Shown: positions 2,570 through 57,282 of the stretch, one piece after another
How positions within the stretch are numbered: position 1 is the stretch's first letter
Layout of the letters: every line of letters starts with the position of its first letter
NCBI RefSeq assembly: GCF_022379125.1
Contig: NC_061519.1
Location: 24,047,101-24,111,100 of the forward strand
Source: Scophthalmus maximus
Taxonomy: Eukaryota
Length of the DNA stretch: 64,000 nucleotides
Direction: 5' to 3'
Program-made: the position numbers and the translations under genes
The notes under the pieces: generated by a model
The model's database searches: none
Seen by the model: the letters and a program-made list of their open reading frames with translations, nothing else
What the model was told of the DNA's origin: nothing

Positions 2570-3071
2570 CTGCACAGCATCCAAAGATCATGAACAAGGA
2601 ATAAGAAAAATATTGTTGAATCAGGTTATATTCTAAGTCCAGCAATACTTGTGTTGAATGAGTCGTAAAGTCATTTGCAAATTGCAATTTCCACTGTAAC
2701 CATCGTGTGGTTGATTTTAGGAGATGAGATATTTTATACATTTTCTAAAACCGCGTTTCGAACAAAAAGACGTTTATCCTTCAAGAATAGTCTACTCTTG
2801 TGATTCACAACGTCATTATAATGAATCAATGTATTGCAGTTAATAGTTTTATTTAATATCAGTTTTAATACCATTGATTTCCACGGAGCTGAGAAGTGGT
2901 GTGTGTCCTGTTAACCAGTAAAATCTAAAATGTGTTTCGAAACACAAAAAACACTTAATGAGGTTCCCAGATGTCCTGCTCTGTTTGTCCCCACTGCATT
3001 AAAAACAAAATTCATATTATAAATGTATTACATATACAACATACAGTTTATGATTATTAGAGGGATGTTAC

Positions 3072-3230: not shown

Positions 3231-3790
3231 CTGGACAGAGGGGGAGAAAAAGAAGAAAACTTTAAACTCATTCACAGATACAAATATATAATGGGGGAAA
3301 AAAACAGAACAAAAAAACAATATTCACTTTGTATTTTGAATGCAGTTTATGATACTGTTACTATGACTACAACTGCCACTATCACACGAAAAGTTCCAAG
3401 TAGAGAAAATCTAATGAAATAAGAGTTGGGAAAAACTGTGACTCTTTCTTTGAAAGTTGGATTTGTTGACTACAGGCGACAAGAAAACGCCCAACATGAG
3501 TCAGTAGCTGCTTTCAATCGGACTTTCAGTCTGAAGTCCAAACCTTTTTTCTGAATTTTCCGGGGGGCTGTATGTGAGGATGCTCAAGCTTATCCTGCCA
3601 GCCCCTAGTAGAATATCTGAGTGAGCCCATGTGAGACTACAGCAAAAAAAAATCTCTGGAAGATTCACGGCGAGCAAGCGTGCGGGCGCTCTACCCCAGG
3701 CGCCAACCCTCGCCCGGATGTTACGGAAATCTTTCTGCTATTGTGAATGCATGTGACTCGGACAATCTCCAGCTCAGATATTCCATAACA

Positions 3791-3800
3791 ACACAGACAC

Positions 3801-3833
<33 letters not shown>

Positions 3834-3834
3834 G
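3791..3834. repeat. (CA)n microsatellite
   Basis: read directly. Confidence 0.9.
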
Positions 3835-4053
3835 ACCAAGTTTTACTGTCTGAGAGCAGATCTTCCTCTTGTATTTTGTAACAGGATTAATCTGGACCAT
3901 CTTCTTCAGGTCGACTTCGTAGGCCGACCCAGATCCCGGCGTCAGAGTGACCGAGGTTCTTCCCGAAGAGACGGCGGAGTCCAGCAAGGCGCAGTCAGAG
4001 GGCGAGTACGGTTCCCACTGTCCTTCATCCCCTTGCCACTGCCACACTGATCG

Positions 4054-4058
<5 letters not shown>

Positions 4059-4128
<70 letters not shown>
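4059..4128. repeat. (GA)35 microsatellite
   Basis: read directly. Confidence 0.95.
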
Positions 4129-4130
<2 letters not shown>

Positions 4131-4785
4131 GTACTGACATGTTTTCATTTTTGGATATGTTAAGTGCGGCCTGTCTGTAACCTGCGAACTTCCTGACTGA
4201 ATTTATTTTGCTGCCTTTTAGAATTTAAATATGTCTAAGCTTTTTGGAAGTACTAAAATGAAATAAATTGAACTACATCTACTGTTATATGGATCTATTT
4301 TAAGTGACTAATATATGACTATATTAGCTGATATAATTAGATTAATACTAATGCACTAATGTGTGAGCAGCATTTTACTGTTGTAGCAACTTTTAACTAC
4401 TTTCATTTGAAAATTCAGTTTCGTTAATAAGACGTTAGTAAGAGATAAATCTGCGAGGTTGTGAAGTGATGATTTCTCATAGTTTTGCTTACAGTTGTTT
4501 TGTTTTTTTTAATCTTACATTGGAGCAGCTTTATTCAACTTCAATCCTGTTGAAAAGTGCTGTGTGAATAAATCTATTACTGTTCATAATAATAAGTGAA
4601 AAAGAAAGAGAAAAACAAAGCTGCATATATATACATAATGTCCTTTTTTGGTGAAATACTGGACAATTTGACCTCTTTGGGTCTGAAATATCTATTTTTA
4701 TAAAATCATTTGAGACATTAAGGTGGAAAATCTCTTTGGTGGACGTTAGAAAAATGTTAAATTCTGAAAATGTGACCCGCAGACG

Positions 4786-13008: not shown

Positions 13009-13439
13009 TTAACTCCCAACAATCTCCTTCAGGGCTGAGGTCAAGTCCGGGAACTTGTACTGAAATCCGGCCTCTAAAGTCCTCTGTGGTCTGACCTTCT
13101 GTCCCTGGGTGAGGACCACCGCCCTCTCGGAGCCCATCAGGCCGTTCATGACGAAGCCTGGCACGGGAAAGATGGTGGGCCGCCGCAGAAGTCGGCCGAG
13201 CTCCTTAGTGAACTCGTAGTTGGTGTTCAGCGCGGGTGCGACTCCGTTCAACACTTGCTGTGAAGATGAGGGAGCGGCGGTGGGCGGCGGCTCCAGGGCG
13301 TGGGCGACAATTCCTGCCAGGTCTGAGACGTGGATCCAGGGGAACGGCTGCCTCCCTGAGCCCAGGGTGCCCCCGAGGCCGAGCCAGAAGGGCAGCAGCA
13401 TCTGCTTCATGGCGCCACCGTCACGACCCAGCACGGCCC
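13009..13439 (-). CDS. sdr39u1: sdr39u1 coding exon 6 (stop TAA at 13009-13011)
   Basis: Translation GAVLGRDGGAMKQMLLPFWLGLGGTLGSGRQPFPWIHVSDLAGIVAHALE...LKEIVGS*. Confidence 0.9.
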
Positions 13440-13548
13440 CTGGTGGAGAGAGGGGGGAAGAACAGGGGGAACGTCATCTTCATGCTTTTGGTCAAGAAAG
13501 TTCTTGACGGATCCACATGGTCTGTGATGAAATATGAAGGTTTATTAC

Positions 13549-13701
13549 CAGGTCTGATGACAACTTGTCTGGTGGTCTGTGCCACACTCTCAGGCAGAAT
13601 TGCTGAGGCCTCCCACTCTTTGACAAGCCTGGAGAGGAGGTCGAATGGTGTCCACTCACTGTCTTCTGTGTACTCGGCTGTCAGACTGGGTTTGTAACAA
13701 G
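13549..13701 (-). CDS. sdr39u1: sdr39u1 coding exon 5
   Basis: Translation ACYKPSLTAEYTEDSEWTPFDLLSRLVKEWEASAILPESVAQTTRQVVIRP; donor G|GTAATA. Confidence 0.9.
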
Positions 13702-13805
13702 CTGTGGACAGAGAGACGACAGTAAATGTCCCGAGTCTAATCCGGTCGGATTGTCTAATCAGCCTCGAACCCCGATCAGCAATTTTTTTCTGTCACCAGA
13801 CTTAC

Positions 13806-13927
13806 CGACACCTGATACCAGCACCCAGGAGTGAGGAGGACTGGGGGAAGCGGCGATGGCTTGAGCCAGAGCTTTTGTCGTGTCGATGCGACTTGAGAAC
13901 AAATCTTTTTTATAGCTTTCGTTCCAC
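13806..13927 (-). CDS. sdr39u1: sdr39u1 coding exon 4
   Basis: Translation WNESYKKDLFSSRIDTTKALAQAIAASPSPPHSWVLVSGV; donor G|GTAAGT. Confidence 0.9.
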
Positions 13928-14299
13928 CTGAAACCACAGACGGGTTGAGACGTTAAAGTGACTGACACAGTAACTCTGAACGGCACCGTTAATGGACCAC
14001 AACACTTAGTTAAATTCCAACCAAGAGAGTTAAACTATTTGTGTTAGATCCTGAGAAATCCACAGACATGATTCACATTAGATGTTTAGAGCTGAAAAGA
14101 TGCTTTTTATTTGTTGGTTTCTGCTTCTCAGATGTGAGGAATCTATTTCTTCATCATGATACAGTGTGATAATAAATATATATACTTGGATTTTGAACTG
14201 TTAGTCAGATAAATGGCAACTTTACATTGGTCAACTTGGGATGTGCGAAATTATTTAAAAATTATTTGAAGTTGTAGCACAAGTTAATTTGCTGCTCAC

Positions 14300-14382
14300 C
14301 ATCGCAGTGGGTTCATGAGATTTTCTCCAGCCAAGTTGACGGCGCCCTCACATGGTGGGAGGCCATGAGACTCCAACTCACC
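14300..14382 (-). CDS. sdr39u1: sdr39u1 coding exon 3
   Basis: Translation GELESHGLPPCEGAVNLAGENLMNPLRW; human has DELAASGLPSCDAAVNLAGENILNPLRRW. Confidence 0.85.
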
Positions 14383-14584
14383 CTACAAGGAGCACAGATG
14401 AAGAAAAGAACAGTGAATATCTGCAATGTGGTGGAAAGCAGCCATTAATAGGTAGGTCAGTTAAAAAAAAACATGTGCATCTCAGTGTCATGGCAACCAG
14501 TGCGGCTGCAGGAATGAAGGAGATGCAGCCCCACCTCCTTTCCCTGCTCTTTTACTATTATTGTACATTAAACAAAGATCATAC

Positions 14585-14691
14585 CCATGTTATTTTCCCT
14601 GGACCGGGCTGGCGAGATATCACTGTGACCTCGTGACCTTTGTCTCTGAGCAGACGAGTGAGCTCGCGGCCCACAAAGCCAGATCCCCCTC
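14585..14691 (-). CDS. sdr39u1: sdr39u1 coding exon 2
   Basis: Acceptor TCTTTCATCGTAG|; translation GGSGFVGRELTRLLRDKGHEVTVISRQPGPGKITW; donor TGG|GTATGA. Confidence 0.85.
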
Positions 14692-15615
14692 CTACGATGA
14701 AAGACAACACAAAGAAGAGAGATGTACAGAGAATCCATCAGTTATCGGCTACAAATTAATCTAGAAAAGAGAGAAATGGTGACTCTGTTTGCCCTGATGT
14801 TACAAATATTAATAGATATATTATCAAAGGGGCATTGAACCAGGAGCAACTGGACTTGGTTGTAAGTTCTTGAAGACATTTCACCTCTCAACCAAGAGGC
14901 TTCTACCGTTCTAACTAAGTTGTGGTGAAACACAGGTATGAGTTTGTTACTTAATAGGTAAGGTGTAAGTATTAGTAGTATTAATATTAGTAGTAGTATT
15001 AGTAGCTCCTGATTCAACATCCTCAGATAACTAATACCTGGAAAATGGCACTATTTTTGTAAATATACATTTTAAAACTTTTTCAAAAACACTTCTTTTG
15101 CACATTCTCTGAACAGAACTTTTGGAACTTATTATGTCACTTGGTTTAGAAATTGCTGCTACTGACTTTGTCATTGTATTTTAGTTTTTTATTTCTGTTT
15201 TTATTTATTGTTCTGATAAATGCAAGGGTAGGAAACCATACATAATTAAATTGAACTAAGTATAATGAAAATAAAGAAAATTCTATTCTATTCTAGATGA
15301 CTGAGAATTTCCACAGACATAAGTAAATATAAAACATACCTTATAAGTTACCATCAGGTACAGTAAGATAAAAACTAATACAGCCCTATAAAAAAAATGT
15401 CCTGTAATGCAGTAATAAATCCTATCTTCATGAAGGTCAGCTTAGCTGTAACTGTTCTGATTAAACTTAATGATGATTGAGGAAATCGTTTGTGGAACTG
15501 TTTGATATTATTCATAGAAGTGTTTCTGTTATTTAGCCAAGCCACGTTTCCGTTAAACGGAGCTGACAAAAAGTTTAAATAAAGTTATTTTGACATTGAA
15601 AGCACGGGTTGCAGC

Positions 15616-20180: not shown

Positions 20181-20448
20181 TCATCTCCCGTTCTGCACAG
20201 AGTGACCACCCGCGCTGTTTGTGGAGTTGAGATTGCCGGTTTCCACCGAGTCTTTCCCCGCGGAGCGACTCTTTTTGTTCCCCGACTGGTCGGAGGATAT
20301 TCCCTCAAAGAGCTTGGCCATGAAGGCGAATCCGTTCTTCCTGATGTAGGACTTCCCCGCGAAGGTGTAGAGGATGGGATTGGCGCAGCTGCTGATGAAG
20401 GCCAGCGCTGATGTGACCGCACGACTGGACTTGGAGATGTGGTCCAAC
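20181..20448 (-). CDS. ltb4r: ltb4r coding exon 3 (TM7 and C-tail, stop TGA 20181-20183)
   Basis: Acceptor TTCACCTGCAG|; translation LDHISKSSRAVTSALAFISSCANPILYTFAGKSYIRKNGFAFMAKLFEGISSDQSGNKKSRSAGKDSVETGNLNSTNSAGGHSVQNGR*. Confidence 0.85.
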
Positions 20449-21378
20449 CTGCAGGTGAACACATGAGTAGACACTTCAATTACTGAACACTTTCAGTGGT
20501 ATAACGGGTTTCAATGCTGAATCCTGCTGAGTATATTAATACTCAACATACACAATGGTCATATTTTATGTATCTTAGCATCATTTTATACATGTATATT
20601 TACACTTTACAATAAAGTTGGATCTAACCGAATATTATACCACAGCTACAGTAAAACATTTATATTTAAGGATTGGAAAAATGTCACGACTACAGAGACA
20701 CAGAATAATTACAAACTCACAAAACAAGTACTGGGAGACAGTGATAAAGAGAACTGGAAATTACTGGACATTTATAAGGAGACAAAAATGACAAAAGTGG
20801 GACAAAAGACATAACCAGACACTAAATGACGACAAAGGAATTTGGCTCCAATTTAAAAAAGCTTCAGTTTTCACAATGTTGGCAACTGAAAGTAAAATGT
20901 ATTGCACCATGATACCAATCTCCTGATATGGTTTCCAATAGATCAAAGGTCAAACAATCCTTGAAACCAAGACCTTTTCTTATTTTCATATCGACCATAT
21001 TCTGTTTGTTTTTTGTCAGAAATATTTAAGCTGTGTGTCAAGCTATGACGTGAATGGCCACTGTATTGCTCTTACAGTAAACGTTCCACGTTATAACGTG
21101 ATACTTTATTGTTATAACAATGAACTTTTTACTTTATAACAGTAAACTTTCAAGTTATAACGTGATACTGACTCATTTAAGTTTTGTCAATATTATTATT
21201 ATCAATATATATATATATATTTGTTTGAGAGGGTTTGGGGAAATGGTCAAAACATTTTGTTACTCACATATCTCTCTTGGTTGAATCCACCGGGTACAAC
21301 TCAGCTGCGACCTATTGGACGTAACAAAACAAAAAAAAGGGTCACATTGGGTCACTGATCCGAAGAAGCAGAAAAAAC

Positions 21379-21620
21379 GTGAGCAGATGATCTCGCGTGG
21401 CGACCGATTCCTCCCACACCTGCACCATGTTGACGACGTGGTACGGCAGCCAGAAGGCGCCGAACATCACCACGATGGCCAGGATGAGCTTCTCGCTGCG
21501 GATGGTTCGCCGGAACTTGGTCTGCCTGAGGCGCCGCAGGATGAGCACGTAGCTGGTTATGATGATTGCGTAAGGGACGATGAATCCCGCCACTGTCTCG
21601 AAGGCGTACTGAAACTGTAC
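21379..21620 (-). CDS. ltb4r: ltb4r coding exon 2 (TM5-TM6)
   Basis: Acceptor CCCTGCGTGCAG|; translation VQFQYAFETVAGFIVPYAIIITSYVLILRRLRQTKFRRTIRSEKLILAIVVMFGAFWLPYHVVNMVQVWEESVATRDHLL; the donor is a weak AC|GTTTTT. Confidence 0.75.
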
Positions 21621-21827
21621 CTGCACGCAGGGAGGACAGGGAAAAAAACAAATCATGGATAATAATTGCATGGGCCTCGGCGGACGTGCATGGATCTGTC
21701 CAAACAAGGCAGAGCGAGATGAGAGCTGTAGTCAGATTCAAAGTTTCCAGCTCTTGGTTCAGGGAATTAGCTGAAAACTCAAAACCATTCGGGTTTTACA
21801 CTTTCGTTCAAAGATGATTAACTGATT

Positions 21828-21850
21828 CCCCCCCCCCCCCCCCCCCCCCC
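21828..21850. repeat. poly-C homopolymer (about 23-25 nt) in ltb4r intron 1
   Basis: read directly. Confidence 0.9.
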
Positions 21851-22133
21851 ATTTTATCGCCTGAACAAGTTGCACACACCAGCGTGCTTCAAGAGGAAGT
21901 CCTTCACTTACTTCCTTGTCCATCCTGGCTTCAAATCAAGAGCTTCCGAGGTTTTGGTAATCGGTGTTATGTAATTATGTATTTTGTAATTTGCTCTTTA
22001 CTCTGACTCGCTGCTCCTTACGACACTTTTGGTCATTTTTCCATATCTGAGCTCATCTTATTTGTTTTGGTCCAGAGAGCAGTTACATCAATAGCAGACG
22101 ATAAAGATAATTGTCGGTCGGATCTTGACTTAC

Positions 22134-22712
22134 ATGGCGAGGAAGAGTGTGATTGGGCGCACACACCAGTCTCATCTTATTCCTTTCGTCGCTGTCTATT
22201 CTCACGTCGCGAAACACTAGCGAGGGGATCGAGATGACCATCACCAGCGCCCACGTGCCAACGATCACCCTCCGCACGATCCTCCTGCTCCCGAGGGACG
22301 ACAGTCTCCTGGGGAACACGACCGCCACCAGCCGGTGCACGCTCATCAGCGTGATCAGGAAGATGGACGCGTACATGTTGACGTTGCACAGGTAGAACAG
22401 GCCTTTGCACATGGCGTCGCCGAAGACCCACGTCTGCTTGGCCAGGTAGACGACGAAGAAGAGGGTGAGGATCATGAGGAAGCCGTCGGCGCACGCCAGG
22501 TTGAGGATGAGGATGGTGGTGACCGAGCGTCGCCGGATGCGAGCCAGGATGCTCCAGACGATGAAGAAGTTGCCGGGGACGCCCAGGAGGAAGACCAGGC
22601 CGAGGATGAGGGCGCCGGAGGCCGTGGAGAAGTCATTGCTCACAACGCTGTCGTCCTCGGGGTTCGTGTTGTTCACAGTGGAAGATGAGACAGTCTGACT
22701 GAAGTTGGTCAT
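22134..22712 (-). CDS. ltb4r: ltb4r coding exon 1 (TM1-TM4, start codon 22710-22712)
   Basis: Translation MTNFSQTVSS...LGVPGNFFIVWSILARIRRRSVTTILILNLACADGFLMILTLFFVVYLAKQTWVFGDAMCKGLFYLCNVNMYASIFLITLMSVHRLVAVVFP...CAPNHTLPRH; donor CAT|GTAAGT. Confidence 0.9.
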
Positions 22713-23146
22713 GCTCGGTCCCGACTGTGATCCTGCGGACGAGACACAAAGCTAGGGACTGCATTCATGGCATTGTTGATTGTTAATAAGTGATAAATGC
22801 TTTCTTTCATGGACGAATTATAAGCAAATCATAAAAAAAAAGGTTGCCAGGTTGTGGAAAATCCTCCAGCATGACAATTATTTTCTTGTCGTTTTACCTC
22901 TTCAAATCAAATCCTCGGTGAGTCATTTTTTGAATTTTCTGGCGACATCTGGTGGTAAAGTTGCAAACCGCAAACCAACCGAGGAGCCGACAGGGGACAC
23001 TTTATGGTGTCGCGCCGCCGATTCCATTTCCGGTTTCCTGCAGCACTGACAATTCTGGAACCGTTTTGTGCAACAGCCGTATTCAACACGACGTAGCAAA
23101 CGTGGCGACTCACACGGAGGTCGGGTCCACCTCACGTAATTGTATG

Positions 23147-32156: not shown

Positions 32157-32317
32157 GTTGGGGGAACAATAATATACATGTATAGTTTTGGGAAAACCCC
32201 AAATGTGTGAAACAATTATTGATTCTGAGGATGACGTGAAGACAAATCCATAGGAAATTTAATGTTTGGATGCTGTGGAATAAGAGAGAACAGAAGTTTA
32301 AATTAAGTAAATGTTAA

Positions 32318-32780
32318 GTGAGTTTGGCTAAAAGAGAAACCTCCAGAGTGAGCGAGGAGGGGGCAGAGGAGGGAGAGGAGAGAGAGAGGGAGGAGGAGGG
32401 GGCGAGAGGAGGGAGAGAGAGAGGGAGGAGGAGGGGGGAGGGAGAGGAGAGAGAGAGGGAGGAGGAGGGGGCGAGAGGAGAGAGAGGGAGGAGGAGGAGG
32501 GGGGAGGGAGAGGAGAGAGAGAGGGAGGAGGAGGGGGCGAGAGGAGTGAGAGGGAGGAGGAGGAGGGGGCAGAGGAGGGAGAGGAGAGAGAGGGAGGAGG
32601 AGGAGGGGGGAGGGAGAGGGAGGAGGAGGGGGCAGAGGAGGGAGAGGAGAGAGAGGGAGGAGGAGGAGGGGGCCAGAGGAGAGAGGGAGGAGGAGGAGCA
32701 GGAGGGGGCGAGAGGAGAGAGAGAGGGAGAGGAGGGAGAGAGGAAGGAGGAGGGGGCGAGAGGAGGGAGGGTGGCGGTCA
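32318..32780. repeat. purine-only GA/GGA-rich tract of about 460 bp with roughly 60-bp periodicity
   Basis: Plus strand is almost exclusively G and A (gggaggaggagggggcgagaggagggagagagagaggg...). It generates mirror-image 186- and 188-aa low-complexity ORFs on both strands. Confidence 0.9.
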
Positions 32781-33360
32781 TGACTGACAGGCAGAACATC
32801 CTATGGGGAAAGAGTAACGGACCAACTGGAGCTGGGAAACCCACCCAGAGGCAATTAAGGGTAAAGGACGACAAAAATATTTGATAAACTTTTTCTCTCC
32901 CCCCTCCATCCCCCTCCCTCTGTCTCGAAGAAGAGGGACACGCTACAGGGACGATGACGATGATGATGATGATGGCGATGGAGCTGGAAGGAAGGAGGCG
33001 ACTTTATCTGGGAGTCATGTCGTTTCGGGAAAAGACTGTGATATCTCCCGAGCTGAGGATTTGATTTTGGACCGCAAGGCATCAAGTGTGGAGCGGGGAA
33101 GGAGGAGGAGGAGGAGGGGGGAGAAGAAGAAAGAAAAAGAAAAGTTGCAAAGATCCGATCACGTCAAGCAGATCGTGTGGAAGCAGCGTGGAGAAGTTGC
33201 CGGAGTTTGACACGGACGAAACCCTCCAAGGCGCGGAGACGTACTGCGCAATGCGCCGCGCGTAAAGACAAGGACTTTGGATAAAAGCTCTTTTTTCTCT
33301 CTCTTTTCTTCAAGAGACACAGAAGTCGCAGGGGTTGATAAGCGGGAGATAAGGGTGTAG

Positions 33361-39203: not shown

Positions 39204-39719
39204 GTTTCAGAGTCTCGTGTGGTCGAGTGTCCAAGCATCCAGATAACCACCATCTCCCCGGAAGACGACGCAGCACCCACCATTTCCAGCTACTGGGACA
39301 TGGGTGGCGGCGGCGGTGGGTGGGACCGAGAACGCCTCTACCTCCCCCTGCTGGACCCCTTTTCCTACCGTGAAAGATGCCCGGGCTCCCTCAGCCCCAG
39401 CCCCGCCTCCAGCCCCTCCTCCCGCGGCTGGCTCAGCCCCGCCTCCAGCTGCGACTCCCTGCTGGTCGAGGAGGACGAGCTCAACGAGGCCGCCATCAAT
39501 TTGGGGCTCTCGCCGTCGTCAAGGCCCACTTCCCCCGGGGGTAAAAAGCGCAGAAACTCCCCTCTGGCCTCCCCCTGCACCTCGCGGAGGGGCAGTTACT
39601 CAGAGGAACTGCAGGGTTACAACCTGGAGGGCGGAGACTCCAACCCTCAGTCGCAAGCTCCGCCCGGCAGCTGTGAGCTCAGCATCCCGCAGAAAACCAG
39701 GAAGACGTCATTGGAGCAG
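39204..39719 (+). CDS. nfatc4: nfatc4 coding exon 3 (regulatory domain: PxIxIT site, SP repeats, NLS)
   Basis: Translation VSESRVVECPSIQITTISPEDDAAPTISSYWDMGGGGGGWDRERLYLPLLDPFSYRERCPGSLSPSPASSPSSRGWLSPASSCDSLLVEEDELNEAAINLGLSPSSRPTSPGGKKRRNSPLASPCTSRRGSYSEELQGYNLEGGDSNPQSQAPPGSCELSIPQKTRKTSLEQ; donor CAG|GTAAAG. Confidence 0.88.
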
Positions 39720-39793
39720 GTAAAGACGCCCGTTTGGTTTTTGTGGCGAAGTATGTCAATTGCGGCGGTGAACGTCACTGTTTTGTCGTCCAG

Positions 39794-39969
39794 CTGTCGT
39801 CCAGGGAGGTGGATCAGGAGCAGGCTCCGGGCCACAGCTCCCCCTGCCCGCCGCCAGAGAGCCAGCAGACCAGGAGAGAGCCCCCTCCGCTGGGCATGGA
39901 CTACCTCTCTGTGCCCCCTGCCCTGGCCTGGGGCCGGACCCGGGCCAGTGCCCACAGCCCTCTGTTCAG
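39794..39969 (+). CDS. nfatc4: nfatc4 coding exon 4 (follows a 74-nt intron)
   Basis: Translation LSSREVDQEQAPGHSSPCPPPESQQTRREPPPLGMDYLSVPPALAWGRTRASAHSPLF; human has MDYLAVPSPLAWSKARIGGHSPIFR; donor AG|GTGAGG. Confidence 0.85.
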
Positions 39970-40235
39970 GTGAGGACACGCGTAGGCAACATCTACTCTA
40001 CTGGTACGACAAAGATTTATATTCATTCAACCAAATGATAAGACAGATTTCAAAAGCTGATCCTTTCACTGACAGCGTGCTGTGTCACGCACCTGTCATG
40101 TTTGCATGTGTAAATTACATGTAAATCTCATTTATTCCTCCACGAAATAGTTATTCACATGCGTCTGCTGTGCCTCTCAGCACTCACCGAGTAAAAAAAA
40201 AACCCTCGGTCTAATAATTGTCCAACCCGACGCAG

Positions 40236-40398
40236 GTCCAACGCGCTGCCGCCACTCGACTGGCCGCTGCCGTCCCAGTTCGACCAGTACGAGCTGCGCA
40301 TCGACGTGCAGCCGCGCCCACACCACAGAGCCCACTACGAGACCGAGGGCAGCAGAGGAGCCGTCAAGGCTGCGCCGGCGGGACATCCTGTCGTCAAG
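40236..40398 (+). CDS. nfatc4: nfatc4 coding exon 5 (start of the Rel homology region)
   Basis: Translation [55 protein letters not shown]; donor AAG|GTGAAG. Confidence 0.92.
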
Positions 40399-40589
40399 GT
40401 GAAGCGCAAACCTTGCAGTAACACACGGGACAGAGAAACAAAATTACATTCACTTTAATTTCAAATCAAGCTTACTTATAAATAATTCTGGAACCAAAAG
40501 TCTTCACACGGAGGTTGCGGCTCACTGCTGTTGACCTCCTCATGCCGGTCGGATCTTAAACCTCTGACACTGAGTCTCTCTCCTCACAG

Positions 40590-40690
40590 CTGTGTGGATA
40601 CACGGAGAGGAAACCGCTCTCTCTGCAGGTTTTCGTTGGAACAGCTGACGACAGATCCATCCGGCCGCATCCTTTCTATCAGATACACAG
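40590..40690 (+). CDS. nfatc4: nfatc4 coding exon 6
   Basis: Translation [33 protein letters not shown]; donor AG|GTACTG. Confidence 0.9.
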
Positions 40691-41099
40691 GTACTGAATC
40701 GCTTTTCAGCAAGTCAAACTTCTTTCCGAGTGTCCCTCTGTCGAGACACAACATAGTGTATATCAACGGGACGCATCGTGTGATCACTGTGGCTGCATCT
40801 ACCACCAGCTGCTTTTTGTGCTGTTTGAGTTGGATGCTTTTTTTGCAGCAGTCATTGTCAGTGTCAGAAGAAAAGCATCAAGAGTTTGTTAGATTCTTCT
40901 TCTCATCTTGTATCTTGGGGCATCTGTGAGATATTCTGTGAGCATCAACAGGATGTAATTAGTTTGTATTTGAAAATATTCAACGGATCTGGACAGTTCC
41001 GTTTCCAATGTGGATGTAATTTGGCTTTGGAGGAATTTGGATGTCTCTTTACTGGATTCAATCAAATGTAGCAACAATAAATAAAATAGCAGAATAGCA

Positions 41100-41170
41100 G
41101 TGCATATCACCCGGGCGCGAACATGGTCACCTTGAGCAGCAGGCCCTGGTTCGACTCCCGAGTGGTTGGA
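41100..41170. repeat. tRNA-derived SINE-like fragment
   Basis: gcaggccctggttcgactcccgagtggttgg contains a B-box GGTTCGAnTCC. Confidence 0.35.
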
Positions 41171-41275
41171 CCCTTAACCGCGTGTCTCTCACCTTGTTTC
41201 CTGTCTCTCCTTCAAAATTTCACAATACACATACATAAGTTTAAGGGCTGCAGCTATTGATTAAGTTAAAGGGGC

Positions 41276-41663
41276 AGTAAGCGATTTTTAATCCTGATAC
41301 ACTTCTGGTAAAATTCAGCAAATATTTCCTTGCGGTCAACTAGCTGTCCGTTCTGTGTGTGCGCTGAAAAAAGATCCATGTTTTTTCGGCTCAGTCCTGG
41401 CTCTGTAAATCGAAAACAAAAGAAATGGGCACAGTTTGTAAATATCACTTGCACCACGCCTTAAGGGACTAGCTGGTGCTAGAGACAACCTTTCTCCAAA
41501 ATAGCTCACTGCCCCTTTAAGAGACGTGCTGGCGTCAACCGCTACGGTTTTAGCGTGTCCGAGTCCCATACCCAAGGTCGCGGGTTTGAACCCCAATCAC
41601 TGCGTTCAGAAAATCAACATTGAACAATCTTTCTCCAAAATAGCTTAATGCCCCTTTGATTAA
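41276..41663. mobile_element. MITE family A copy 3: a duplicated 3' terminus enclosing a tRNA-like module (41521-41625)
   Basis: ttaaaggggcagtaagcgatt ... ctttctccaaaatagctcactgcccctttaa, then ggtcgcgggtttgaacccc (B-box-like), then a second ctttctccaaaatagcttaatgcccctttga. Confidence 0.5.
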
Positions 41664-41909
41664 AGATTAATCTATCAGTTATTTTTTATCTATAAAATAT
41701 GTGGGGGGAAAAAAGGCCATCACACTTCCCAGACCCCAAAGAGACAAGTTTGTTTTGTTGTAAAACCAGCAGCTACAGTCGAGGGGCTTTAACCATCACA
41801 TGATCACCGGCCTCGACCATCTCAGGGCTGCGATTCGTGGATTTAAAAACAACAACCATCAACCTGTAACTGGAGGCGTGTGACGTTTAGCCTGTTTCTG
41901 TCCCGGCAG

Positions 41910-42011
41910 GGTGACGGGGAAGATGGTGGGCACTGCCAGTCATGAGAGCGTTCAGGCCGGGACCAAGCTGCTGGACATCCCCCTCAACCCAGAGAACAAC
42001 ATGACTGCACT
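41910..42011 (+). CDS. nfatc4: nfatc4 coding exon 7
   Basis: Translation [34 protein letters not shown]; donor CT|GTGAGT. Confidence 0.9.
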
Positions 42012-42871
42012 GTGAGTAAATGTTTCCTCCACATGCCCACAAATTAAGTTCTTCTCTTTTTTATAATCCAATTTCCAAAGCAATTTTTTAAGGCCAGTAC
42101 AGCACACTATATGTTTGAGGCTAATTATTCAGATTCCTTTTTACTGGGCCAGTGTGGCTTAACGTCAACCGCTTAGCCATGGTGGAAAGTACAATTTTGC
42201 ATTTTCTGCAACTTTATACTTGTACTCCACCTCATTTTAAGCGAAAACATTATGTTTTTTAACCCCACAATGTTTTATTTGACATGTTGAGCCCTTTGTA
42301 GATTAAGACTCTAATATTTGGATTTTGTAAGATTTTTCATAAAAAGAACAGATGTTATATATGTATTAAGACCGTAAGATTGTTTGACATTAATTAACAC
42401 AATGTGGTTTGTTAGCTGCTCAAGTAAAGAATGGTTTTCTCTCTAAATTTCCCAGATTTCTTTTGTTTAAAATAATTGCAATTATTAAAAATTTTATATC
42501 AGGGAAAAAAATCCAAAATATGAATATACATTTATGTATCAGCACCATTCTTTCTCCTTCTGTCCTTCTTATCTCTCCCATTAATCATCTCATGACCCCT
42601 CAGATTTATGCTGTGACCCTTGGAGGGGCCCAATCGGCCAAACTGCTCACACACTGATCACGCATCGATGTTAACCATCAAATAATGTCAGATATAATAA
42701 TATATGACATTTTATCTCACAACAATTCCTTGACAGTTCAAGTTGAAAAATAAAACTGAGTAGTGTTTTCTTCCACCGCTCCTGCCGATAACCAGCGTGC
42801 AAAGTACCAAACCTCGACCGAGCGGCGGAGCCTTCCCTGGATAAATGTAAATGTAAACTCTTCTGTCGTAG

Positions 42872-43059
42872 CATCGACTGCGCCGGGATCCTGAAGCTGA
42901 GGAACTCGGACATCGAGCTGAGAAAAGGGGAAACGGACGTCGGCAGGAAGAACACGCGCGTTCGCTTGGTGTTTCGTACCCACCTCCCTCTGGCGCCCCC
43001 TGTGGCGCCGCCTGGCCGGGTCCTGGCTCTGCAGGCTGCCTCGCTGCCCATCGAATGCT
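42872..43059 (+). CDS. nfatc4: nfatc4 coding exon 8
   Basis: Translation [63 protein letters not shown]; donor T|GTGAGT. Confidence 0.92.
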
Positions 43060-43597
43060 GTGAGTCGATGGTCACATGTTCGTTTTTCAACTTTCGTACA
43101 ATCTTGACATTTTTATACATTGTTAGAAAGCTTTCCTGATTCTGTCTGTGTAAAACATTTTAGGATTCTCATGTCACTGCATTCACCGTTGATACAGAAT
43201 TGGTTATGGCTGCAGAAAGTTTTCCACAGGAGAGACACTATTGGAGGCCTCATATTCCAATTTTTATACGAAAAAAATGTCTTCAATATTCTTTTTCCAT
43301 GTTTTTATGCCCCTGAAAACTTGGTTCAGTATCTCATATACTCATTCTGACTTTTTGGTTGTACATTTTAAGTGTTGATTTTCAAAGCAACACCAGAGAT
43401 GTGACTGACCTCTAAATGTTTGAAGAACAGCAACCTCTTTTATTTTGGCTACATTTTTTTTCAGTCGAGGGGAGCAACAAAACAAATAGTCGAGCAATTG
43501 TTTCCGTTCTACTGCAAACAGGCTGTAGATTATGATGATATTTACCGGTACTGAAGATGTTTAATTTGCCAGATTCTTTTCTCCCTCCCTCCCTCAG

Positions 43598-43738
43598 CCC
43601 AGCGTTCGGCCCAGGAGCTGCCCGTCATCGAGTCCGTCAGTCTCACTTCCTGCTGTGTGGAGGGCGGAGAGGAACTTCTGCTGAGTGGCACCAACTTCCT
43701 GCCGATCTCCAGGGTTCTTTTCATGGAGAGGGGGACAG
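43598..43738 (+). CDS. nfatc4: nfatc4 coding exon 9
   Basis: Translation SQRSAQELPVIESVSLTSCCVEGGEELLLSGTNFLPISRVLFMERGT; donor G|GTAAAT. A one-base indexing discrepancy in this interval between my reading and the ORF track means the start may be 43597. Confidence 0.85.
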
Positions 43739-44114
43739 GTAAATGTCCGCAGGGGGGGACGCGTGAACAACTTCCGATGCTGCTCTTAATTGAAGGTAGC
43801 CAGTATTTAGATGAGGACAATAATGTGGTTGTGAATGTGGAATTTCTAAAGCGATAAATACGATTAGAGTTCAGAAACTGTCTTAACAAGCATTTAAATT
43901 AATTTCAGTAAGGGAGAAAAAGTAAGTAATTCAAGAAGCAAAGTCATTCAATGAAAAAAAACAACAGGATGAATAATAGTTGTTCTATTTATTATCTTTG
44001 AATAGACGAGTAGTGTAGTTTGGGATCAATAGTGTCTGCATCAGATTTTTTAAATAAATACACGACGTGGGAAAATGTTTAAACTGTGTGTGTGACATAT
44101 TCTGGAACTATGTT

Positions 44115-44210
44115 TAACTCATTCAAAGTTGACGAAAAACATTGGTTCTTTGTTGCCAGGTGATTATACATATATGAACACATGGTTATGGACAATATGT
44201 TCAATTTTCC
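44115..44210. mobile_element. MITE family C copy 2 (3' end diverged)
   Basis: taactcattcaaagttgacgaaaaacattggttctttgttgccaggtgattatacatatatgaacac. Confidence 0.45.
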
Positions 44211-44535
44211 CACTGTAGCTCTAAACAAATATTGAAGTTTCAGGAACGGGAAGAGGAGTGAGTTTTACAAACAATATTTAATCTGGTAGATAATAGTCAT
44301 GTTGGAAAAATAAAAAACCTCCTACGTACTGTATATTTGCAGTCAAAAATCAGAAGCCTCATTTCCTAGGCCTCCAGTTTAAAAAAATGATGAATTGAGG
44401 TTAAGATTTGAATCATTTGTCAGAGGAAACTGATTTAAAAGCAAAAGCAACCGAAGCTTTGACGTCAGACATTAACTGTGATCTAGTGAGAGCAAGTAAA
44501 TGATATTCATTAGACGGACTGTGGGTTTGTTTAAG

Positions 44536-44568
44536 TGTGTGTGTGTACGTGTGTGTACGTGTTTGTTT

Positions 44569-44600
<32 letters not shown>
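44536..44600. repeat. (GT)n microsatellite (interrupted)
   Basis: read directly. Confidence 0.9.
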
Positions 44601-44601
<1 letters not shown>

Positions 44602-44651
44602 AGCGTGCATCTGGTTTACACTTTATTCTACCGTATGTTCTTATCTATCAG

Positions 44652-44707
44652 ATGGTAAATTGCAGTGGGAGGAGGAGGCTCATGTCGACCGTGACAACAG
44701 CAACGAG
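44652..44707 (+). CDS. nfatc4: nfatc4 coding exon 10
   Basis: Translation DGKLQWEEEAHVDRDNSNE; human has DGKLQWEEEATVNRLQSNE. Confidence 0.9.
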
Positions 44708-44876
44708 GTAAATTCGTGTAATGTGTAAAAAAAAAAAAGAAGAAGAAAACTACAGAACTTTTTAAGCTCCAGTTTGAAATGAACAGATGGAGCTAAAAGC
44801 TTCTGATGAACGTGTTTCCGGTCGTGCCCTGTGTCGTGTCCACACCCTCTTTTCTTTTCTTTTTTTTACCTCGTAG

Positions 44877-45003
44877 TGTTTGTTGTGCGTGAGAGTTCCC
44901 GCCTACAGCGACCTGTCCGTCAGTCGGCCCGTGTCGGTCAGCCTGTACGTCTCCAACGGGAAGAGGAAGAGAAGCAGCACTCACTGCTTCAAGTATCTGC
45001 CCA
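44877..45003 (+). CDS. nfatc4: nfatc4 coding exon 11
   Basis: Translation CLLCVRVPAYSDLSVSRPVSVSLYVSNGKRKRSSTHCFKYLP; donor A|GTGAGT. Confidence 0.9.
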
Positions 45004-45778
45004 GTGAGTTTCCTCCCTTCTCACCTGATTCTGCTCGCAGCTCATGTGTCATGGTGGATTTCAGATTTGGGAGACAAAGTCGAAAGGTTGATTTTCCTCC
45101 TGTGGTGACAGAACCATCTCTGACCTTTAGACACCTGAACAGTATGATTTTTTTATGTACATTCACAGGAATTAGTGATGAATTTACTCACGTATTGACA
45201 TGTAACATCAAATATATTGTTATGTAAATACAATACATTATAACATGCATATTTATTTATTTATTTTAGAATATACCGTTTTTTAAGTTTATTTCTTATA
45301 ATTGCACTTCCTGAACTGTACCTCAATATTTTCTGGGTACCGTTGCAATTGTTCAAAGCATCCAAACGTGAAATGTGAAACTTGGACAGATGTGATGATC
45401 ACTGTGTTCAATATTAATTTGATTTAATCGTAATTGTAGAGCATATTTTGTCAAACTAAAAAATGGTACATGTTCATATTCCCAAAACGAAGGTATTAAC
45501 AAAAAGTAAGCACGTTATGAGGAATCATATTTGCAGTCATGTTAAGAAACTAAAACAAATGACAGCCTTAATTCTGTGAGGAAATATTTTCTCATTTTCA
45601 TTAGATTCATAGAAATGTTTCGAAATCTGTTCCTCTCTGGAATATCTCAATCCAACATTTATTTACAGAATACTCGGCTTACTCTTTTTTTTTTATTAAT
45701 GAGAAAAAATATATAAACAATATTAAATTTTACTAAAACTCAATGTAAACACATATTGTTTTCTGTTTTTCCCCGGAG

Positions 45779-46498
45779 TAATGTTTAAAGAGGAGGACCC
45801 TCTGCTGCCCCGGCCCTCTGTGCTGCCACTGGACAGGGGGACCGTGTGTTCTGTCGAGGGCCAGCTCAGGATGGACGGGGGCTTCCACGTGAGGGCCGAC
45901 ACTGGGGCCGATGATCAAGGTCTGGGCTTCCACTTGCCCCCCTACCCATCCACCTACTCTCCTCCCTGCCCCATGAGCTACCACGAGGAGTACTGCTCTA
46001 AGCCCGATGGCGCGCTGGAGGAGCCCGGTGGATCCAGGGCGGCGCTCTCCGAGCGTCACCCCAGCTTCGAGAACCTGGAGCTGGGCTTCACCGAGCTCCT
46101 TCCCCCCCTGTACCCCCGCGGGCCACAGCCGCCCTCCCCTTCTCCTTCCCCGTGGCTGGACTCACCCTACCTGTCCTCCTCACCCTCTCCCTCCCACTCC
46201 TCCTCTCTCAGCCCGTTCCCAGCCAGCAGTCCTATCTCAACCTCCCCTCTGCCTCACATCGCCACCTCCCCTTACCCCCAGTACTCCGCTTATCCTCAGG
46301 AGATGTGTCCCTCCCCTCCCTCCAACCCCAGTCCCTATCAGGACATGTACCCGGCGCCTTACTCCCATTACGACGGCTGGGATCCCCAGGGCCGGGTGGT
46401 GGGGATGGGACACGGTGGAGAGAGGGATGCCAAGATCCAGGAGTGCCCCCTGGAGTTTACCAGCTCAATGTCTATGCACCACATTACCTTTGAAGAAG
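45779..46498 (+). CDS. nfatc4: nfatc4 coding exon 12 (C-terminal Pro/Ser-rich transactivation region)
   Basis: Translation IMFKEEDPLLPRPSVLPLDRG...SPSPSPWLDSPYLSSSPSPSHSSSLSPFPASSP...HHITFEE; human has VICKEEPLPDSS...; donor G|GTGAGT. Confidence 0.85.
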
Positions 46499-47364
46499 GT
46501 GAGTAACAGTTACGGACCTCCGTGTTGAGGAGTGTGTCTGCGTGTTTCTGCGTGGGTGCTATGTATGGATACGTGGGATACGTGAGTGTGTAGATTGGTG
46601 AGATTGTAAAAAGTTTGATGACAGAAAAAATGGCTGAACTAATGGTTACAGTTTGTGCAAAAGCTTTTTATTCTAATTTGGTTTTCCGCCGTTATTTTGT
46701 AGTTGGCAGTCTAGAGAAGGGGAACAAGGGTCTGACATGCAGCAGACGTCACAAAGGTCCTGAAATCTGGGCAACGGTGTCATAGTGAAAAAACTGTGTT
46801 GTTTTTTTTACATCAACACATAATATAAACAACTGTTTTTGATAAACAATCTGTGTTATGGATAAACAGTTTCTACGTTACCAAGAGAGTAGATGAGGTA
46901 AATACTATCAGCTCATATTATCTTGACCCTTTGTGGCGAACTCTAAAAGATTCATGCTCGTACGGCCAAGTGATGAAGAACTGTGAGTTGTGAACTAGGC
47001 TGCAAAACATTTCATCTGCAGAGTTTCAGGCCAGAATAACATCATTTAACTGTTTCCCTTGTGTTATGTTAGTGTCTTAGATTTATTTATATGTATCTAC
47101 GATTGTCTTGATCTGAAAATGTTGCCTTAATATTTGTATCAGGGCATCATAGCGAAGAGATGGATGTAGGAAAAGTGTTTCAGATGCTGCTTTCCAGCTT
47201 TCCAAATAAATGAGTATAAAATTACTTGGTTATTACTTACAGGTTTATTACCCTTTTGTCGTAGCGCTGCGCGAGTTTCTGCAGGTACGAGTGACAGTGA
47301 GTGCATCAGGTGGACAGGCGGGTGGAAGGGCTTCACTGACTTATTCTCTCTCCTCCCGCCACAG

Positions 47365-55028: not shown

Positions 55029-55910
55029 TCAGGCGCTGACGAACACCAGGCGGGTGGAGTAGACCAGGTCGATGAGGTACAGGATGAAGTTGAGGCCGGT
55101 GAGCACGGACACGGCTATGAGCTTGTCCCATATACACAGCCCCAGCGCGTTGGAGCAATTGTACGGCCTCTGTTTTGTTCCGCCGTGCTTGGGGTCAAAG
55201 TTGAAGATGGGCCAGATGATGGTCGCCGACAGATAGAGAACCACGGCCAGCAGGGCGTAGGCCGACAGGAAGCGGGCGAACGGGAAGGGGAGGCAGCCGG
55301 TGCACTCGCCGATGCAGAGCAGGATGATGGCCGCCGACAGGATGAAGCAGATGCAGTAGACGGACATGCAGTACTTGAGCGCATCGTGGCGGTCGTACAG
55401 CACCGGGTCGCTGATGAAGACAAAGATGATGCAGGCCACGAAGGTCTCGCAGACTTTCAGCAGGCCGGGGGCCGTGGCCATGTAGCCGGCCACCTCGCCC
55501 GGACGCGCCTTGCTGATGCTCACTTCGCTGATGTAGGCGATGGTGGCCAGGCAGGAGAAGACGGTCGACACGATGCGGAAGTCGCGGACGTCGCTGGGGC
55601 CCGTGGACCCCTTGAGGAAGTAGAGGGGGAAGATGATGGAGGCGGACAGGCAGAGCAGCGCGGAGTAGCAGGCGAACGTGATGGGGAAGTTCTTCCAGGA
55701 GACGGGGGCTCGGGCCTGCAGGCCGAACAGCTCCACCAGGACGACGAGCAGGGTCCCGGCGAAGCTGAAGGCCCAGCAGAAGATGCACCAGTCTCCGGTG
55801 CCGTGGTGGAGTCTGCCGCCGTGCACCGCCACGGAGAAGGCCACGCAGGCGAAGACCATGGCTGCCAGCCGCGTCCACAGGAGCGGACTGGAGTGGAGGA
55901 CTATGGCCAT
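55029..55910 (-). CDS. myadm: myadm-like (myeloid-associated differentiation marker family), intronless CDS with two MARVEL domains
   Basis: Translation [31 protein letters not shown]...[27 protein letters not shown]...[33 protein letters not shown]...LVFVSA*. This aligns along its whole length with human MYADM ([23 protein letters not shown]; [33 protein letters not shown]). Kozak context CCCATCATGG. The long ORF 55029..56450 extends upstream of the likely true start. Confidence 0.85.
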
Positions 55911-57282
55911 GATGGGAGACGGAGTGGGTGACGAGAGACTCTTTTTCTTCCTTTCCTTTTGGGGCGTCACCTTCCTCAGATGCGTACAGACAGAACTGCA
56001 AGGAGAAAAAGGACAACGAAGAGAGTCAGCGCGGCACATTTCACGGTGTAATGTCGTTTCTGCTGAGGTGCAATGTGCGGCCACGTGAGGGCAACAGCTT
56101 GCAATTCGAACGGGCCGCGTACTCCTACACACCACGGTCCGGCCAAACAATGGCGTTATTGTATTTCGATGAGAGGCTGAAACAAGTGAAACCCACGAAA
56201 ACACAATTTCTAACCGCAAATAATGACTGCACTGTGATCGCACTCGCCGCAGCACATTTACATCTGGTAAACACTCCGTCCCCTGTTTCCCCCGTCTGGC
56301 GAGTTTCGTCCCCGAGTTCCCATCAAGACTCCAGACTTCTTTATTATCGACAGCATTCCTGCGCTGAGTGCAGACCGCTCCGCTCTGACATTCCTCCGCG
56401 CTCGAGGCCTCGTCGGCGGGCGTGGCGCCGCAGCCTCCACTCACGCCCATAAATGCGTCTGTCGTCGCGCTCTAAAAATGACCCTCCTCGCTTGCTCCAC
56501 GCCGGAGGGGGGGCCGGGGGGCCTCGTCCACACTGCACAGAGAAACTGGAATCTCAACAGGCCTTTTAAAATGTGACGCGGCTCGACCTTGAATTCTGAC
56601 CTTTGTCACAGAAACAGACCCGTGAGTCTATTTCATCTCATTTATTTTTTACTGCCTATTAATTCAACTTTTCATTCTTCGGTGAAGGATTTTTTAGCTT
56701 CCGTCTCAAGTTACACAGTCGACCCTTTTGGAGCTCACACTGGAAAATGTTTTTTTCCGCTTTGTGAGATGAGAGCGAGCGTCGACGTCACACATTACCA
56801 AGGGCCAAAAAGTAACACTGAGAGAGAGAGAGAGCGTCCAGTCCTGAAACCAAGCACTCTGGTGATACTAAAATATTTGAATCATTAATGGATGACCCCC
56901 CCCTTGGGTTCCGTTCATCTATTAATGGTCGACCTCCGTCAGACATCCACAGTCACGCGAAGTCGTCTGAAAGATTTTAGCTGCTGTTAAAAAAAATTGT
57001 GACAAAATGACGCCAAACTCAACTTTTATTTTGATGACACGCTTTCAGATCTTGGTGGGAGGGCGGCAGAGGCTATGTAAGGGGAGAAGAAAGGTAAAAA
57101 GAGGGGGTGTGGGGTGGGGGTAGGGTGAAAGATGGATATACTGTACATGGATGATAACAAAGTAATCTTGGGGGGATTGCAAGGACCAAGGTAATGGATA
57201 CTGCAGATCCCACAGGTAGTGAGACGTGTGGGGGAATGAGTACTGAAAAACAAAATGATACTTCTGCAGCACGTGTGTGTGC

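Follow-up and report, generated by a model that had tools for sequence, protein, structure and literature searches.

The minus strand of the window, which is the whole 64-kb stretch of DNA that was analysed, carries at positions 20181-22712 a GPCR gene that open reading frames and translation show to be real and intact. We regard it with high confidence as an intact teleost ltb4r2b orthologue, with a coding sequence split into four exons, one of which is a micro-exon of 44 nt. The four-exon structure itself is already known, in that it is present in public gene models of many fishes.

Structure of the receptor gene

The coding sequence consists of four exons of 579/201/44/268 nt on the minus strand, with three GT-AG introns of 513/108/819 nt and phases 0/0/2 between them. 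Splicing of 22712-22134 / 21620-21420 / 21311-21268 / 20448-20181 leaves the frame intact and gives a protein of 363 aa. In the order of transcription, the parts of the gene are as follows.

22134..22712, minus strand: coding exon 1, 579 nt, M1-H193 (ORF and translation)
21621..22133, minus strand: intron 1, 513 nt, phase 0, GTAAGT...GTGCAG, separating H193 from V194 where ECL2 borders on TM5
21420..21620, minus strand: coding exon 2, 201 nt, V194-Q260, with TM5, ICL3 and TM6 including FWLPYHVVN
21312..21419, minus strand: intron 2, 108 nt, phase 0, GTGTGG...CCAATAG, between Q260 and V261 at the extracellular end of TM6
21268..21311, minus strand: coding micro-exon 3, 44 nt, V261-D274 and the first two bases of M275, in ECL3
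20449..21267, minus strand: intron 3, 819 nt, phase 2, GTGAGT...CACCTGCAG, inside ECL3
20181..20448, minus strand: coding exon 4, 268 nt including the TGA at 20183-20181, from the last base of M275 to R363

Exon 1 starts with the ATG at 22712-22710 and covers the N-terminus, TM1-TM4 and ECL2 (tblastn self-match 99.5%), and exon 4 supplies the rest of ECL3, TM7 with the NPILY motif, helix 8 and the C-tail (tblastn match 100%). Between them, exon 2 ends at 21420 with a good donor, CAG/GTGTGG, directly 3' of AAC ATG GTG CAG, and the acceptor of intron 2 is pyrimidine-rich, with TTTTTTGTTTTGTTACGTCCAATAG immediately ahead of the micro-exon. The latter (boundaries CCAATAG/GTCGCA...AGATAT/GTGAGT) is read in an open frame, GTCGCAGCTGAG...AGAGATAT, up to a consensus donor, GTGAGT, and encodes the ECL3 peptide VAAELYPVDSTKRD. 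Since 44 is not a multiple of three, skipping of this exon would shift the frame and cost the receptor its TM7, so that on arithmetic grounds the micro-exon should be obligatory.

The two longer introns also contain simple sequence, namely a 23-nt poly-G run on the gene strand at 21828-21850 in intron 1, and a 21-nt tandem repeat (21090-21169) and an (AT)8 tract (21205-21220) in intron 3.

In a preliminary description of the locus, the gene had been put together from three minus-strand segments, which are indeed present and, as translation confirms, join in frame into a stop-free protein of 362 aa. Its start (ATG at 22712) and stop (TGA at 20183-20181) are correct, as are the first intron (22133-21621, 513 nt, GTAAGT...GTGCAG), the position of which is kept in teleost orthologues, and the acceptor at 20449/20448 together with the last exon. 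The second intron, with a GTTTTT donor at 21378, is wrong, as 21419-21379 form part of the true intron 2, and recourse was had to this weak donor because the 44-nt micro-exon had been overlooked. What remains of the proposed interruption of the coding sequence is hence that it contains spliceosomal introns, unlike that of human BLT1, but their number is three and not two.

Choice between the splice models

That the three-exon structure is nevertheless the right one, with exon 2 extended to 21379 and the GTTTTT donor joined to the acceptor at 20448 to give 362 aa, appears to us extremely improbable. It can point to its open frame without stops and to a TM6-TM7 spacing equal to that of human BLT1, but its donor, CAC/GTTTTT, is devoid of -1G, +3R, +4A and +5G. 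When all in-frame, stop-free GT/GC-AG combinations around the region were enumerated, which gave 246 models, and scored with an HMM built from 23 orthologues, the micro-exon model ranked first of the 246 with 672.9 bits. The three-exon model, at 651.7 bits and rank 15, lies 21 bits below it and belongs to the best single-intron models, which reach ~652 bits.

The same choice is made by the orthologues. After TM6, all 19 aligned teleost orthologues carry the consensus VAAEWYP..S..RE.LDHI, into which the micro-exon peptide of the window, VAAELYPVDSTKRDM-LDHI, fits; the residues that the GTTTTT donor would add, VWEESVATRDHLLT, have a counterpart in none of these 19 sequences. The loop between TM6 and TM7 counts 31 residues in the corrected model as well as in all aligned teleost orthologues. 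The 30 residues that had been put forward as matching the human length were correctly counted for the model in question, but the match is coincidental. The 44-nt exon is, moreover, found in all four teleost orthologues that were mapped, which is a further point against the three-exon structure. The alignment with the human and guinea-pig BLT1 structures does not separate the two splice models from each other, as mammals and fish differ too much in ECL3.

An additional line of evidence is the Logan contig SRR11928264_44008 from a related fish, which has a length of 1329 nt and an uninterrupted orthologous ORF of 361 aa; this uninterrupted ORF is the one ground on which we take the contig to be, presumably, a spliced transcript. 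The support is cross-species, as the related fish shares 78% protein identity with the window protein. The contig aligns with the window in four collinear blocks (22715-22129, 21615-21417, 21313-21292 and 20451-20243), which end at the predicted splice junctions. The third block falls into the micro-exon and shows 91% identity, while the contig contains no sequence matching 21416-21379 of the window, and both observations argue against the three-exon structure.

Identity of the receptor

The protein belongs to the BLT family within the class A GPCRs. The Pfam profile 7tm_1 (PF00001) matches residues 47-302 with E=2.4e-48 and over all of its positions (1-260 of 260), and the closest solved structure is that of human BLT1 (7vkt, E=1.7e-69, query residues 26-341). 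The human and guinea-pig BLT1 structures together span E-values from 1.7e-69 to 6.5e-60, and the next family, CXCR3, follows at 9e-35. The early assignment to the LTB4R-like 7TM receptors has consequently held. A search of the protein database brought up hundreds of teleost sequences, most of them under the name 'leukotriene B4 receptor 2b'. Among the best 120 of these matches, identity ranges from 68 to 82% and nearly all entries are named either 'leukotriene B4 receptor 2b' or '1-like'; the closest ones, at 76-82% (top match 82%), bear the 2b name.

In a neighbour-joining tree with 100 bootstraps, the window protein falls into the 2b clade together with eel and Umbra (100%), and outside a BLT1 clade of fish, frog, alligator and vole sequences (94%). 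The BLT2 clade, for which the N-terminal half of P0300 as well as P0171 and P0139 served as representatives (located by means of a putative human BLT2 sequence, which was a lead only), is separate from the 2b clade. The BLT superclade as a whole receives 83% bootstrap support, and where the 2b clade attaches with respect to BLT1 and BLT2 receives no more than 66%.

The label ltb4r that the gene had been given does not survive this comparison. For an orthologue of BLT1 one could cite the best solved-structure match being human BLT1, an identity of ~38-42% to BLT1 proteins, a TM6-end intron in common with teleost blt1, and an identity of only ~35-37% between the 2b orthologues and what we take to be the human BLT2 sequence. 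Teleosts, however, possess separate, bona fide blt1 genes (P0137, P0393), and the window protein is only ~42% identical to them, as against 76-82% within the teleost ltb4r2b clade. The BLT1 clade of the tree leaves the window protein out, and the neighbouring genes, as far as the published zebrafish map allows a comparison, are those of blt2b on chromosome 2 and not those of blt1/blt2a on chromosome 7. We hence consider a BLT1 orthologue to be highly improbable and keep to the assignment as ltb4r2b.

Neighbouring genes

Two genes near the receptor gene bear on this assignment.

13012..14692, minus strand: sdr39u1 exons, downstream of the receptor gene and on the same strand (tblastn)
39219..46506, plus strand: NFATc-type gene, upstream of the receptor gene and on the opposite strand (Pfam and ORFs)

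The sdr39u1 exons were found as five tblastn blocks with 51-100% identity, with the SDR39U1 part of P0065 as the query, and there is a Pfam DUF1731 match. The NFATc-type gene is marked by an RHD_dimer match (E=6.1e-08 at 44880-45227), which represents the Rel-homology dimerisation exon, and its ORFs include an SP-rich N-terminal and a Pro/Ser-rich C-terminal part; a Pfam scan of the ORFs 39219-40124, 45781-46506, 43657-43857 and 40531-40929 returned no domain match. For zebrafish, the legend of Fig. 3C in Okuno 2015 (PMC4349892) names nfatc4 and sdr39u1 in the map of the blt loci, and the paper assigns blt2b to chromosome 2 and both blt1 and blt2a to chromosome 7. The sdr39u1 and NFATc neighbours of the window match the zebrafish blt2b synteny as given there, and by analogy with the wording of that legend the NFATc-type gene is probably nfatc4 specifically.

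Integrity of the gene

A search of the 64-kb window with tblastn found a single BLT-like gene. At the place of the E/DRY motif, the encoded protein reads VHR, with a His for the Asp. Such a replacement is unusual for a class A GPCR, and one could take this degenerate motif, together with the lack of any protein-database match of at least 90% identity (the top one being 82%), as a sign that the locus is a derived, partly processed or decaying BLT paralogue, i.e. a pseudogene, as the preliminary description had also considered. We give this next to no credence. The 363-codon ORF is intact and its splice sites are canonical, VHR is common to the aligned teleost orthologues (with LHR in gar), and the only BLT gene in the window sits in a conserved neighbourhood. 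The exon structure is that of the orthologues, and none of the three orthologous introns has been lost, contrary to what a processed copy would display. Furthermore, identities of 76-82% over many percomorph families with the TM motifs kept speak for purifying selection on what we continue to regard as an intact ltb4r2b.

Intron positions across homologues

Exon maps of homologous genes were produced with an exact splice mapper, for which the concatenated exons had to translate to the annotated protein.

2b of Toxotes, Polymixia and medaka: four coding exons, exon 2 = 201 nt, exon 3 = 44 nt, phases 0/0/2
2b of eel (Anguilla): four coding exons, exon 2 = 201 nt, exon 3 = 44 nt, phases 0/0/2
2b of reedfish, paddlefish and spotted gar: two coding exons, one phase-0 intron at ...YHVVNIIQ/VAA...
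BLT1 of Toxotes (P0393): three coding exons, one intron at YHIVNIIE/VIG (same site and phase) and one at PFYR/SNLK (phase 2)
'2b' of stingray (BLT2-like): one coding exon, no intron
BLT1 of frog (Pelobates): two coding exons of 36 nt and 1077 nt, with the 7TM region all in one exon

The residues at which introns interrupt the 2b genes of Toxotes, Polymixia, medaka and Anguilla are those of the window gene. The single intron of the reedfish, paddlefish and gar genes occupies the site of window intron 2, and the exact splice maps of the Erpetoichthys, Polyodon and Lepisosteus 2b genes contain neither intron 1 nor intron 3. Site and phase of intron 2 are hence found in all 7 mapped ray-finned 2b orthologues and also in the BLT1 gene of Toxotes. 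Outside the ray-finned fishes, the lone intron of frog (Pelobates) BLT1 follows a 12-codon N-terminal exon, and the ORF of human BLT1 is uninterrupted and lies in exon III (Kato et al., 2000, PMC2193224). Neither frog nor human BLT1 nor the stingray homologue examined has a phase-0 intron where TM6 ends.

In Dissostichus, the corresponding locus (L012) consists of a tandem array in a messy state, and its annotation (P0389) is fused. The 2a-like gene linked to blt1 in this fish suggests, as a lead only, that the intron-1 and intron-2 positions are present there but not that of intron 3.

These maps also bear on the remark that an intron gain in a normally single-exon GPCR is uncommon. One of the introns is common to all ray-finned fishes examined and to teleost blt1, and the other two are common to all teleosts examined, so that nothing in them is particular to the window gene.

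Discussion

Concerning the order in which the introns appeared, intron 2 is the old one, as it unites the 2b genes of reedfish, paddlefish, gar and teleosts with teleost blt1 and, it would seem, with a teleost 2a-like gene. Its age is at least that of the crown ray-finned fishes. The micro-exon and the introns on which it depends, 1 and 3, would most parsimoniously represent gains on the teleost stem, since they are absent in three non-teleost ray-finned fishes and present from eel to percomorphs; this proposal has as its basis three non-teleost and five teleost genes. One could also imagine that introns 1 and 3 were instead lost three times independently, which is the less parsimonious course of events, and we hence prefer the gain on the teleost stem. 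The broader idea that the BLT genes of ray-finned fishes record a stepwise and datable intronisation of an otherwise single-exon chemoattractant GPCR is tentative, and we would at present rather doubt it than assert it.

For the TM6 intron that is common to the fish BLT paralogues, three different reasons can be envisaged, namely that (i) it could be ancestral and have been erased in tetrapods and cartilaginous fishes; (ii) it could have been passed on by gene conversion between tandem paralogues; or (iii) blt1 and 2a/2b could be closer in origin than their names imply. If the last of these were true, zebrafish Blt2b would have come by its BLT2-like 12-HHT pharmacology through convergence. The intron history of ltb4r2b is not discussed in the literature that we found on ltb4r2b or on BLT gene structure, and one of these papers (PMC10637354) contains nothing on gene structure.

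In terms of annotation, the lesson is that a 44-nt micro-exon is easily overlooked and that its place can be taken by a model that keeps the frame and looks plausible despite a weak donor, in the present case one that by coincidence even reproduced the human loop length. Once corrected, ltb4r2b is a routine orthologue with the standard structure and with nothing peculiar to this locus. The wider point is an evolutionary one, as a receptor family in which the human BLT1 ORF is intronless would have gained one and later two further coding introns in the ray-finned fishes. What is mildly novel here is confined to the stepwise history of the introns and to the occurrence of the TM6 intron in several fish BLT paralogues, and ltb4r2b can serve as a modest case study of intron gain, and does not represent a new kind of system.

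Comparison with known receptors

Zebrafish Blt2b prefers 12-HHT over LTB4, as determined in Ca2+, cAMP and GTPgammaS assays (PMC4349892). By orthology, the receptor of the window would likewise be Gi/Gq-coupled, with 12-HHT and LTB4 as its ligands. Zebrafish Blt2b and the other teleost ltb4r2b proteins belong to the same orthogroup as the window gene by similarity and tree, and zebrafish blt2b, within what the published map covers, also has the same neighbours. Its four coding exons recur in ltb4r2b of eel, Polymixia, medaka and Toxotes, and what separates the teleost proteins from that of the window is species-level divergence only, the best match being 82% in a database from which the window protein itself is absent.

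With human BLT1 (7vkt), the window protein has in common the receptor family, the 7TM fold, WLPYHVVN in TM6 and NPxLY in TM7, but the HRL of the window protein is replaced by DRS in human BLT1, the human ORF is without introns (PMC2193224) whereas the coding sequence of the window has three, and according to the neighbour-joining tree the window gene is not the orthologue of BLT1. Toxotes blt1 (P0393) has a phase-0 intron at the same extracellular end of TM6, as is evident from YHIVNIIE/VIG against YHVVNMVQ/VAA in the window, but it is only ~42% identical at the protein level, has no micro-exon and carries its other intron elsewhere and in phase 2. The closest counterparts outside the teleosts are the 'ltb4r2b' genes of reedfish (P0339), paddlefish (P0342) and spotted gar (P0347), which belong to the same clade and have the same TM6-end intron, but consist of two coding exons, without introns 1 and 3 and without the micro-exon. 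A bichir protein (P0130) is 54% identical to that of the window.

Exon structure across BLT genes

An intron at the end of TM6 is not confined to the ltb4r2b orthologues, as the junction at 3059/3361 of the Toxotes jaculatrix ltb4r (blt1) locus (L008) marks a phase-0 intron whose position is identical to that in the 2b genes. This intron was absent from the mapped gene structures of the frog BLT1 and stingray homologues. From our point of view, three origins can be imagined for the intron common to teleost blt1 and 2b, namely that it (i) may be ancestral; (ii) may have been gained in parallel; or (iii) may reflect gene conversion between the tandem paralogues.

A 2a-like gene, i.e., a blt1-linked BLT paralogue, adjoins the tandem blt1 copies in Dissostichus mawsoni (L012, 30684-30893 and 31369-31680). 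The edges of one of its exons, cag/VALQY...VNMVQ/gtatgt, appear to correspond to the positions of intron 1 and intron 2, and intron 3 is apparently missing since SPSQPSRLNLIWHK is contiguous. The protein annotated at this locus (P0389) represents blt1 fragments fused with the 2a-like gene.

Two further database proteins look like public-annotation artefacts. The Polypterus senegalus 'LT4R1 protein, partial' (P0130) matches only as far as the intron 2 site, probably because this bichir model reads into the intron; at the same site, the reedfish orthologue carries an intron of 13.1 kb. In the 542-aa snailfish model (P0001, Pseudoliparis swirei), exons 2-4 are present in repeat.

Within the window gene, the following repeats lie inside introns:

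21828-21850, intron 1: 23-nt run of a single base (plus strand poly-C, gene strand poly-G)
21090-21169, intron 3: 21-nt tandem repeat, 3.8 copies, containing GTTATAAC
21205-21220, intron 3: (AT)8 microsatellite

E/DRY motif

The window protein carries VHR-L at the E/DRY motif of class A receptors, with His for Asp (V125-H126-R127; 22340-22332, minus strand). As this His is almost invariant among the teleost orthologues aligned, the gar orthologue has LHR, and those of reedfish and paddlefish retain LDR, the D-to-H change seems to have originated in the gar-teleost ancestor. Signalling is retained in zebrafish Blt2b (PMC4349892).

Other features of the window

55029-56450, minus strand: single ORF of 473 aa with two MARVEL-domain matches (Pfam E=1.2e-22)
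3721-4140, minus strand: ORF matching the WWE domain in Pfam (E=1.6e-17)
32314-32884, open on both strands: low-complexity repeat, rich in GC (0.565), GC skew 0.375 (strong G skew)

The first ORF is probably a single-exon MYADM-like gene. The WWE ORF is flanked by dinucleotide microsatellites, translated as SLSLSL... and CVCVCV.... The low-complexity repeat, with the translations EEGARGERGRRRR... and SSSLSLSSPSP..., is probably not a gene but an array of tandem or minisatellite repeats.

Candidate 5'UTR intron

The 5'UTR of the related-fish cDNA, a Logan contig with an orthologous ORF, did not align to the window. About 20 nt upstream of the ltb4r2b ATG, a good acceptor-like sequence (22733-22742, ctcgtccgcag/GATCAC) suggests a candidate 5'UTR intron in the window gene, which would resemble human LTB4R, where the 5'UTR likewise contains an intron.
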